From a virus (taxonomy: Duplodnaviria; Heunggongvirae; Uroviricota; Caudoviricetes): 5,829 bases of DNA. The notes beneath the pieces were generated by a model. It was not told the origin of the DNA and searched no databases. It saw only the letters and a list, made by a program, of their open reading frames with translations. Below are positions 3,194 to 4,688 of this stretch, piece after piece (position 1 is the first letter of the stretch; every line of letters starts with the position of its first letter). The stretch lies in IMG/VR virus record IMGVR_UViG_2541047498_000008. One strand, written 5' to 3'. The translations under genes and the position numbers were made by a program.

Positions 3194-4688
3194 TCTTTCA
3201 CACATTATTGCCGCAGCATTCAATGAACCGCTGCTTCTGGAGCCCGCCTATGCGCGGGTTTTCTTTTGCGCGCTCGGGCGCGAGATGGGGGCAGCAAGTC
3301 TTTCGGTACCACAGCAGCAGGTACAGCTTGATGCTCCCGGAATGCTGGCTGAAACGGACGAGTACATGGCCGGAGGTAAACGACCGGCCCGTGTTTACCG
3401 GGTGGTGAACGGTATTGCTGTACTGCCGGTGACCGGCACGCTGGTGCACCGGCTGGGGGGTATGCGGCCATTTTCCGGAATGACAGGCTATGACGGCATT
3501 GTCGCCTGTCTTCAGCAGGCAATGGCGGATAGCCAGGTGCGGGGCGTACTGCTGGACATTGACAGTCCGGGCGGGCAGGCCGCCGGCGCGTTTGACTGCG
3601 CTGACATGATTTACCGCCTCCGTCAGCAGAAGCCGGTCTGGGCACTGTGCAATGACACGGCCTGTTCTGCAGCCATGCTGCTGGCGTCGGCCTGCTCCCG
3701 ACGGCTGGTTACCCAGACATCCCGTATCGGCTCCATTGGCGTGATGATGAGCCATGTCAGCTATGCCGGTCATCTGGCGCAGGCCGGTGTGGATATCACG
3801 CTGATTTACTCAGGGGCGCACAAGGTGGATGGCAATCAGTTTGAAGCCTTACCGGCAGAGGTTCGCCAGAACATGCAGCAGCGCATTGATGCGGCGCGCC
3901 GGATGTTTGCCGAAAAAGTGGCCATGTTTACCGGTCTGTCTGTTGATGCCGTCACGGGAACAGAGGCCGCCGTTTTTGAAGGTCAGTCCGGCATTGATGC
4001 CGGGCTGGCGGATGAATTAGTCAATGCGTCGGATGCCATCAGTGTGATGGCCACGGCGCTGAACAGTAATGTCAGAGGAGGCACTATGCCGCAATTAACT
4101 GCAACGGAAGCCGCCGCGCAGGAGAACCAGCGAGTGATGGGGATCCTGACATGCCAGGAAGCGAAAGGACGTGAACAGCTTGCCACGATGCTGGCAGGAC
4201 AACAGGGCATGAGCGTTGAACAGGCCCGGGCGATTCTGGCCGCGGCGGCACCGCAGCAGCCGGTGGCATCCACGCAGAGTGAAGCCGATCGCATTATGGC
4301 GTGTGAAGAAGCGAACGGTCGTGAACAACTGGCGGCAACGCTGGCGGCGATGCCGGAGATGACGGTGGAAAAAGCCCGCCCGATCCTGGCTGCTTCACCG
4401 CAGGCGGATGCCGGACCCTCACTCCGTGATCAGATCATGGCACTGGATGAGGCAAAAGGGGCTGAGGCGCAGGCTGAACAGCTGGCTGCCTGCCCGGGAA
4501 TGACTGTGGAGAGCGCCCGGGCTGTGCTGGCTGCGGGATCAGGTAAGGCAGAACCGGTCTCTGCATCCACAACCGCCCTGTTTGAACGCATCATGGCGAA
4601 CCATTCACCGGCTGCGGTACAGGGTGGCGTGCCACAGACGTCAGCAGACGGTGATGCGGACGTGAAAATGCTCATGGCCATGCCATGA
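3183..4688 (+). CDS. C: Head maturation protease / scaffold (lambda gpC-like, S49/ClpP-fold peptidase family), 501 aa
   Basis: The N-terminal region NLSHIIAAAFNEPLLLEPAYARVFFCAL matches the lambda gpC N-terminus, and S49-type peptidase motifs are present (GIAVLPVTGTL, GVLLDIDSPGG, SIGVMMSH). The GTG start at 3183 overlaps the portal stop; an AGAGGAG sequence lies 12 nt upstream, so the exact start is uncertain by a few codons. Confidence 0.88.
   Translation: MRRNLSHIIAAAFNEPLLLEPAYARVFFCALGREMGAASLSVPQQQVQLDAPGMLAETDEYMAGGKRPARVYRVVNGIAVLPVTGTLVHRLGGMRPFSGMTGYDGIVACLQQAMADSQVRGVLLDIDSPGGQAAGAFDCADMIYRLRQQKPVWALCNDTACSAAMLLASACSRRLVTQTSRIGSIGVMMSHVSYAGHLAQAGVDITLIYSGAHKVDGNQFEALPAEVRQNMQQRIDAARRMFAEKVAMFTGLSVDAVTGTEAAVFEGQSGIDAGLADELVNASDAISVMATALNSNVRGGTMPQLTATEAAAQENQRVMGILTCQEAKGREQLATMLAGQQGMSVEQARAILAAAAPQQPVASTQSEADRIMACEEANGREQLAATLAAMPEMTVEKARPILAASPQADAGPSLRDQIMALDEAKGAEAQAEQLAACPGMTVESARAVLAAGSGKAEPVSASTTALFERIMANHSPAAVQGGVPQTSADGDADVKMLMAMP
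4074..4081 (+). promoter_or_regulatory. Internal Shine-Dalgarno sequence (AGAGGAGG) for the nested Nu3-like start
   Basis: A strong purine-rich SD sits 4 nt upstream of the in-frame ATG at 4086, within the C coding sequence. Confidence 0.5.
4086..4688 (+). CDS. nu3: Putative Nu3-like scaffolding protein, translated from an internal in-frame start within gpC (nested gene), 200 aa
   Basis: ATG at 4086 is in frame with C and is preceded by AGAGGAGG (4074-4081) with 4-nt spacing. In lambda, Nu3 is the C-terminal portion of C initiated internally. The downstream region is Ala/Gln-rich and repeat-containing, typical of scaffold domains. Confidence 0.5.
   Translation: MPQLTATEAAAQENQRVMGILTCQEAKGREQLATMLAGQQGMSVEQARAILAAAAPQQPVASTQSEADRIMACEEANGREQLAATLAAMPEMTVEKARPILAASPQADAGPSLRDQIMALDEAKGAEAQAEQLAACPGMTVESARAVLAAGSGKAEPVSASTTALFERIMANHSPAAVQGGVPQTSADGDADVKMLMAMP
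4128..4600 (+). repeat. Intragenic divergent tandem repeats (3 full copies plus 1 partial, about 140-160 nt period) encoding a 'R-I/V-M-A ... E-A-K/N-G-R-E-Q-L-A ... P-x-M-T/S-V-E-x-A-R-x-I/V-L-A-A' motif in the gpC/Nu3 C-terminal domain
   Basis: The copies are visible in the translation: QRVMGILTCQEAKGREQLATMLAGQQGMSVEQARAILAAAAPQQ, DRIMACEEANGREQLAATLAAMPEMTVEKARPILAASPQ, DQIMALDEAKGAEAQAEQLAACPGMTVESARAVLAAGSG, and a partial ERIMANHSPA. The nucleotide anchors cgagtgatgg (4131), cgcattatgg (4291), cagatcatgg (4431) and cgcatcatgg (4587) recur with similar spacing. Confidence 0.7.

Follow-up and report, generated by a model that had tools for sequence, protein, structure and literature searches.

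Three tandem copies of a predicted three-helix domain in the scaffold part of a phage 21-like protease/scaffold gene

Introduction

The 5829-nt DNA stretch of virus record IMGVR_UViG_2541047498_000008 (from here: the window) holds the lambda-type head gene block of a phage 21-like Escherichia coli prophage. Its open reading frames (ORFs) follow the order terminase, W, portal, C, D and E, and the head operon is colinear with the annotation of the phage 21, lambda, N15, phi80 and Gifsy-1 records. The gpC-like gene of this block encodes a protein of 501 amino acids (aa), which combines a protease with a C-terminal scaffold part predicted to be produced also as a separate protein from an internal start. 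In this scaffold part, three diverged tandem units of ~41–44 aa each follow one another (Table 1).

Lambda-type heads are a classic assembly model as well as a display and nanoparticle platform. In lambda, Nu3 is the scaffold; it is reported to self-associate, to interact with C, E and B and to be required for the incorporation of the portal (PMC3224144). The title of Medina et al. 2011 (PMC3247018) calls gpNu3 an "intrinsically disordered ... procapsid assembly catalyst". In the open-access sources, we found no mapping of which Nu3 part contacts what. In the scaffold of phage P22, a small C-terminal helical hairpin binds the coat protein N-arm electrostatically, via contacts between Arg/Lys and Asp/Glu residues (PMC12005531).

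Results

The gpC-like gene and its putative internal start

A Peptidase_S49 domain (PF01343) was detected by Pfam at aa 146–293 (E = 2.8e-35, 122 bits at a cut-off of 24.9), hence in the N-terminal two thirds of the protein as expected for a lambda-type prohead protease/scaffold, and the full-length protein matched PHROG 53, "head maturation protease", with E = 1e-227. Together with the position of the gene between the portal gene and the D- and E-like genes, and with an internal ribosome-binding site followed by an ATG, this supports the assignment made in the first-pass annotation of a gpC/Nu3 homologue, i.e. a predicted lambda-type S49 protease with a nested scaffold. The gene is 98.6–98.7% identical to that of phage 21 and close relatives and colinear with gene 5 of phage 21, while the scaffold part of the window allele is 100% identical to that of E. 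coli O157:H7 prophages. A Pfam scan assigned no family to the C-terminal 200 aa.

The putative start of the scaffold isoform is an ATG within the codons for G-G-T-M, located 4 nt behind an AGGAGG element. Gene 6, or the scaffolding protein, is annotated at the equivalent position in both phage 21 records (M81255 and OL657228), and the G-G-T/R-M residues at this putative start are common to the five phages 21, Gifsy-1, N15, phi80 and lambda. The lambda equivalent is G-G-R-M at aa 306–309. In the RefSeq annotation of lambda, nu3 starts instead at Met239 (position 833 in the lambda stretch), yielding 201 aa, and this position is an Ile in the window protein; Nu3 start annotations are therefore inconsistent between phages.

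Three tandem units, conserved at the protein level

The units share the consensus ER.RI..IL...EAKGRE.LA..LA..PGMTVE.AK.ILAAAP, and a hidden Markov model (HMM) of the unit detected all three copies. As elsewhere in the family, the last unit is followed by a tail of 40–50 aa, which is poorly conserved except for F-[DE]-x-[FIL]-M and an L-M-x-x-P end. Pairwise Smith-Waterman scores between units were 87–101 compared to means of 25–26.5 for shuffled sequences, corresponding to z = 11.9–15.5, and none of 2000 composition-preserving shuffles reached the observed score. The similarity that had been noticed by eye is hence significant. The motif starts (R[VI]M/QIM) lie at nt 4131, 4290, 4431 and 4587, giving spacings of 159, 141 and 156 nt, in agreement with the period of about 140–160 bp given previously.

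The first-pass annotation had listed three full copies and one partial copy between 4128 and 4600. The three full copies stand, whereas the partial fourth at nt 4587 was rejected. Its scores against the units gave z = -0.2 to -0.9, and the part in common is just ERIMA. The stretch reads FERIMA in the window and FEHFMA in phage 21 itself, so that two of the substitutions separating the alleles, R469H and I470F, produce the apparent fourth copy in the window. It aligns with the family tail motif F/L-[DE]-x-[FIL]-M, which is represented by ALDRLM in the single-unit protein of lambda.

The units are diverged rather than identical, as had been stated, with 60–68% nucleotide identity between them. 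Codon positions 1 and 2 are 61–80% identical between units compared to 34–37% at the third position, which indicates an old duplication conserved at the protein level and no DNA element. In this context, we considered whether the periodicity stems from an element at the DNA level, such as binding sites, an RNA structure or a recombination hotspot, or from chance similarity within Ala-rich, low-complexity sequence. The region is indeed Ala- and GC-rich, and two "CII binding site" features are entered in OL657228, the complete record of phage 21, at window positions ~4091–4104 and ~4325–4338 on the minus strand, within the coding sequence; these are pattern matches only (TTGYN6TTGY), for which we found no support for function. 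On the other side, Tandem Repeats Finder reported no repeat in the window, a seed-based repeat finder returned merely fragments of 12–22 nt spaced by 150–153 nt, Rfam gave no match on either strand, and a promoter/terminator scan found nothing within the repeat. With protein-level scores this far above the composition-preserving shuffles (z = 12–15.5), and with the units kept as protein in distant phages, the DNA-element or chance reading is effectively refuted.

Unit 3 is the most diverged copy. It carries a G-A-E instead of the G-R-E turn (nt 4458–4463, aa 426–427) and thus lacks a near-invariant Arg, as G-R-E is found in at least 90% of the units family-wide (78-unit alignment) and is kept in unit 3 of Gifsy-1.

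Table 1. Features of the window; positions in nt, residue numbers refer to the 501-aa protein. i-E, independent E-value; CDS, coding sequence.
Feature	Position	Strand	Evidence and remarks
gp5 / gpC-like head maturation protease-scaffold protein	3183-4688	+	501 aa, GTG start; ORF list, Pfam, PHROG
AGGAGG ribosome-binding site for internal scaffold isoform (putative)	4076-4081	+	Read from sequence; ribosome-binding site annotated in M81255, OL657228
gp6 / Nu3-like scaffolding protein, in-frame internal CDS	4086-4688	+	200 aa = gp5 C-terminus; predicted
Unit 1 (aa 313-356)	4119-4250	+	HMM i-E = 7.9e-26; overlaps "Tri1 box" (4153-4256)
Unit 2 (aa 366-406)	4278-4400	+	HMM i-E = 3.1e-28; overlaps "Tri box" (4293-4403)
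Unit 3 (aa 413-453)	4419-4541	+	HMM i-E = 2.1e-26; overlaps "Tri3 box" (4434-4547)
C-terminal tail (aa 454-501), holds FERIMA	4542-4685	+	Homologous tail in single-unit proteins
Terminase large subunit C-terminus	29-1414		ORF list
W-like gene	1398-1604		ORF list
Portal gene	1601-3193		ORF list
D-like decoration gene	4725-5072		ORF list
E-like capsid gene, start only in window	from 5130		ORF list

A hairpin resembling a terminator (TCAGGCCACCGCGGTGGCCTGA, with a T-rich stretch behind it) is located at 5080–5101 on the plus strand, in the gap that separates the D-like from the E-like gene, and the N15 record has a putative rho-independent terminator annotated at the equivalent relative position.

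The repeat is marked in the phage 21 head operon

The triplication is already known, because the GenBank record of the phage 21 head operon (M81255) marks these segments in gene 6, its Nu3 homologue, as the repeat_regions "Tri1 box", "Tri box" and "Tri3 box", an annotation that dates from the 1990s. Each box carries the remark "function unknown; putative". By an indel-free alignment, the boxes could be placed on the window coordinates given in Table 1, where they coincide with the three unit cores that had been found independently of the annotation. The record presumably belongs to Smith & Feiss 1993, Gene 126:1-7. We found no mention of the Tri boxes, or of a triplication in Nu3, in open-access papers.

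Genes 5/6 of phage 21 have the same length and the same three segments as the gene in the window. The two sequences differ by 21 substitutions in 1506 nt, 3 of them within the repeat, without any indel, and the proteins by 10 aa, including the R469H and I470F differences described above.

A single unit is the norm in the family

Three units were detected by the unit HMM in the window, in phage 21 and in the 498-aa homologue of Salmonella Gifsy-1, compared to one unit in lambda (aa 357–399 of 439), N15 and phi80 (447 aa each). An exhaustive profile search through 1.84 billion representative proteins identified 428 proteins at E <= 0.001. Among the 55 full-length-like matches within the best 143 of these 428, one unit was found in 54 and three in the remaining one (P0092, 505 aa), with the last unit ending at a median of 52 aa before the C-terminus. 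This census was taken from the profile search, whereas a word-indexed protein search, which yielded mostly contig-end fragments, served for finding copy-number variants. With one unit in 54 of 55 proteins, the single-unit form is the rule, and the triplication is characteristic of a sub-lineage. The possibility that all lambdoid gpC proteins carry the same number of units, in which case the repeat would have been a family trait, fails because lambda, N15 and phi80, like these 54 proteins, have one; the expansion postulated in the first-pass annotation is thus borne out.

Two further proteins from the searches deviated in other ways. The distant, short and scaffold-like P0109 (198 aa; representative search) contains two mutually close units and, judged by its sequence, would represent a duplication of the domain that arose independently, beyond the enterobacterial lineage. 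The Gifsy-like P0231 (258 aa) shows Ala to Val, Thr to Ile/Met and Pro to Leu/Phe exchanges throughout, and looks like a database artefact resembling translated C-to-T-converted (bisulfite-like or damaged) reads.

The lambda protein shares with the window protein the S49 domain, the gene order, the internal G-G-T/R-M, one homologous unit and the tail, and the part preceding the units is 60–62% identical, depending on the alignment. It differs by having its one unit behind a low-complexity spacer of ~47 aa, counted from the conserved G-G-R-M, whereas three units follow a spacer of 11 aa in the window protein. The gpC homologue is longer than that of lambda, as had been claimed (501 vs 439 aa), and this had been attributed to the repeat. 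Only part of that account holds: units 2 and 3 with their linkers add 96 aa and the tail 9 aa, but the spacer is shorter by 36 aa and the N-terminal part by 7 aa, leaving a net gain of 62 aa.

The Gifsy-1 homologue has three units in the same order and a protease part 70% identical to that of the window protein. Paired by position, unit 1 is 77% and unit 2 is 80% identical; unit 3 is 61% identical and belongs to the same unit-3 group in the unit tree, but retains the G-R-E turn, and the tails are only ~29% identical. The protease parts of three-unit proteins showed identities of 0.70 and 0.64 to each other, compared to at most 0.60 to all single-unit proteins; the three-unit proteins are thus mutual nearest relatives by their protease part, which is consistent with a single origin of the triplication. 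In the unit tree, unit 1 of every triplicated protein joins the single unit of lambda, N15 and phi80, with which it shares a 3-residue G-I-L insert and to which it is orthologous. Units 2 and 3 from E. coli and Salmonella prophages cluster for the most part according to their position. The triplication is therefore older than the divergence of these prophage lineages, which confirms the inferred age of the duplication. The two extra units lie between unit 1 and the tail.

Copy-number alleles in E. coli

The three-unit scaffold part (4086–4688) was found in 1870 of 5426 complete E. coli genomes, at up to 5 places per genome. Near-full-length matches came from ~1864 complete genomes, and nearly all of those listed share the same length. 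The head module is thus very abundant, and many strains contain several nearly identical copies of it, which could recombine with each other.

Close relatives with another copy number include a protein with four units (P0027) and three with two units (P0016, P0020 and P0021). A four-unit allele of 538 aa is located in an intact head operon of E. coli STEC309 (NZ_CP041435.1, 1628–3244 of the examined stretch) and is colinear in ~104 complete E. coli genomes. Its units 2–4 are 80–85% identical to one another, indicating a separate, more recent amplification or homogenisation. A two-unit allele was confirmed in just one complete genome, that of O157:H7 strain 7636 (452 aa; NZ_CP038421.1, 1701–3059 of the examined stretch). 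Here, exactly unit 2 is gone, and the flanking sequences are joined at the P-Q found behind each unit. The prophage is decayed, as its tape measure gene carries a frameshift and its capsid gene is truncated, and this allele is therefore no evidence that two units suffice. The two-unit alleles of the draft contigs (P0016, P0020 and P0021) could be assembly artefacts.

Constraint on the unit cores

Compared with Gifsy-1, the ratio of nonsynonymous to synonymous substitution rates (dN/dS) was ~0.10 for the pooled unit cores, ~0.13 for the protease, ~0.30 for the tail and ~0.73 for the linkers; among the units, it was ~0.04 for unit 2 and highest, ~0.25, for unit 3. Saturation of dS makes these ratios approximate, but cores and linkers clearly differ. 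The unit cores are thus under purifying selection, in line with the earlier proposal that the repeat is maintained by selection.

These data bear on the possibility that the extra units are largely redundant spacers, which tune the length or volume of the scaffold in the prohead and occupy the place of the disordered pre-unit spacer of lambda, while one unit does the specific work. A pre-unit spacer that is 36 aa shorter than in lambda, alongside the two added units, fits this idea, as do the occurrence of 2-, 3- and 4-unit alleles and the missing near-invariant Arg in unit 3. However, units 1 and 2 are constrained like the protease and the linkers are not (dN/dS of ~0.04–0.1 vs ~0.7), the three-unit length is nearly constant among the matches from the ~1864 genomes, and the sole two-unit allele seen in a complete genome comes from the decayed prophage, whose capsid gene is truncated. 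We consider a mere spacer role unlikely.

Predicted fold of the unit

Unit 1, modelled as a single unit by AlphaFold2 (AF2) with an alignment of 78 diverse units, was predicted with a predicted local distance difference test (pLDDT) of 90.4 and a predicted template modelling score (pTM) of 0.70. In the model, a long first helix leads via a short E-A-x-G turn into the second of three helices, and a loop with the conserved P-G-M-T connects the latter to the third. In a model of the 200-aa scaffold part based on 21 sequences (pLDDT 63.6, pTM 0.24), the units are again helical; two of the three linker segments have pLDDT values <50 and the third ~61, the arrangement between units is not fixed, and the tail has low pLDDT as well. 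As modelled, the array would consist of independently folding units, i.e. beads on a string.

A Foldseek comparison with viral models (BFVD) found the module behind the S49 proteases of distant phages, including Salmonella phage 37, a Synechococcus virus and an uncultured siphovirus, with template modelling (TM) scores of 0.82–0.89. When the 200-aa scaffold part was compared with the sequences of the Protein Data Bank (PDB), no meaningful hit emerged (E = 1.3), and a Foldseek search with its low-confidence model gave no match in the PDB. Near systems are tandem three-helix-bundle modules, such as those of staphylococcal protein A, the streptococcal GA modules and the Ebh/Embp repeats.

Pfam assigned no family to single units either, but yielded matches below threshold to helix-hairpin-helix (HhH) families: unit 3 scored 18.3 bits against PF00633 HHH (E = 0.002; gathering cut-off 24) and the lambda unit 16.1 bits against HHH_5 (E = 0.017; cut-off 27), while units 1 and 2 gave no match. 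These hits, and the similarity of the pattern L-A-x-x-P-G-M-T-V-E-x-A-[KR]-x-I-L to the HhH consensus, could suggest that the units are HhH-like DNA-binding motifs with a DNA-related role for the scaffold or protease. The fold search lends this resemblance no support and returned no match to an HhH fold, and such a role appears very improbable to us.

Discussion

We propose the following explanation for the repeat. The product of nucleotides 4119–4541 would be a small three-helix domain in three tandem copies that fold independently; this domain is the sole well-conserved element of the C-terminal region in lambda-type S49 protease/scaffold proteins. With the predicted scaffold isoform nested in frame within the protease gene, the array would be part of both proteins. 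Ancestrally, there was presumably one unit as in lambda, with two units added between unit 1 and the tail in the sub-lineage of phage 21 and Gifsy-1, whose three-unit proteins lack ~36 aa of the low-complexity spacer that precedes the unit in lambda-type proteins. Each unit, we infer, is a protein–protein contact module which, while the procapsid assembles, would attach the scaffold and the co-assembling protease to the inner face of the capsid shell, to further scaffold chains, or to both. Three such units on flexible linkers may make the chain multivalent, allowing it to bridge several neighbouring subunits, whereas lambda Nu3 would rely on the dimerisation of single-unit chains. Taken as a whole, we regard the explanation of the three folded copies as a multivalent protein-contact array of the scaffold as moderately probable. 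The four-unit allele, which is found in an intact head operon and in ~104 complete genomes, speaks in its favour.

The C-terminal coat-binding helix-turn-helix of P22 gp8 offers a possible parallel. It is likewise a small helical module with conserved basic residues, located near the C-terminal end of a scaffold, and we propose by analogy that the phage 21-type unit may work in a similar way. P22 gp8 differs in having one hairpin per chain and no fused protease, and it has no match to the unit in sequence or fold.

Several points weigh against the multivalent array. The unit matched neither the P22 nor the phi29 or 80alpha scaffold domains in sequence or fold. Since lambda manages with one, T=7 assembly as such does not call for additional units. 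The constraint on the cores is derived from dN/dS ratios that are approximate owing to the saturated dS. Unit 3 of the phage 21 type lacks the near-invariant Arg and evolves faster, which hints that the copies are not all equally needed. Finally, protease-scaffold-capsid fusions of the MD8 type reportedly keep the lambda-like scaffold part minus its last ~40 residues (PMC8508860), which may mean that the tail, and not the unit, binds the capsid.

This last point leads to an alternative assignment of roles, in which the units are modules for scaffold–scaffold self-association that form the scaffold core while the C-terminal tail binds the capsid protein; the triplication would then alter oligomer size or network connectivity and not the capsid-binding valency. 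In the nested protease/scaffold genes of herpesviruses, it is the extreme C-terminus that binds the capsid protein. The self-association of lambda Nu3 (PMC3224144) is in line with this assignment, as are the MD8-like fusions, which look as if a covalent link to the capsid protein had replaced the tail (PMC8508860). However, the tail is the least conserved part, with 29% aa identity to Gifsy-1, a dN/dS of ~0.30 and low pLDDT, which is unexpected for a specific capsid contact, and the units are not packed against each other in the single-chain AF2 model of the array (pTM 0.24). We give self-association by the units an appreciable but clearly smaller weight than the multivalent contact array, and within the latter we favour the capsid protein over other scaffold chains as the partner of the unit.

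The triplication is not new; added here are a confident model of the domain, the single-unit baseline of the family, the alleles with 2 and 4 units, the difference in selection between cores and linkers, and the orthology by position with Gifsy-1. Nothing points to an unusual mechanism, and the three-copy form is present in about one third of the complete E. coli genomes.

In a wider and more tentative proposal, which we find possible but rather doubtful at present, the unit would serve all lambda-type S49 protease-scaffolds as their capsid-binding (or scaffold-networking) module, with its copy number acting as a tunable valency. It would then also deserve to be defined as a domain family of its own, given that Pfam has none. 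If this were true, the alleles with one unit (lambda), two units, three units (phage 21, Gifsy-1 and the O157 prophages) and four units (STEC309 type) would represent a ready-made valency series with which to probe how the valency of the scaffold governs T=7 procapsid assembly in its nucleation, kinetics and fidelity. The ~44-aa three-helix domain, as the apparently only conserved and foldable element of the scaffold, and its natural versions with one to four copies would thus provide a handle for valency experiments.

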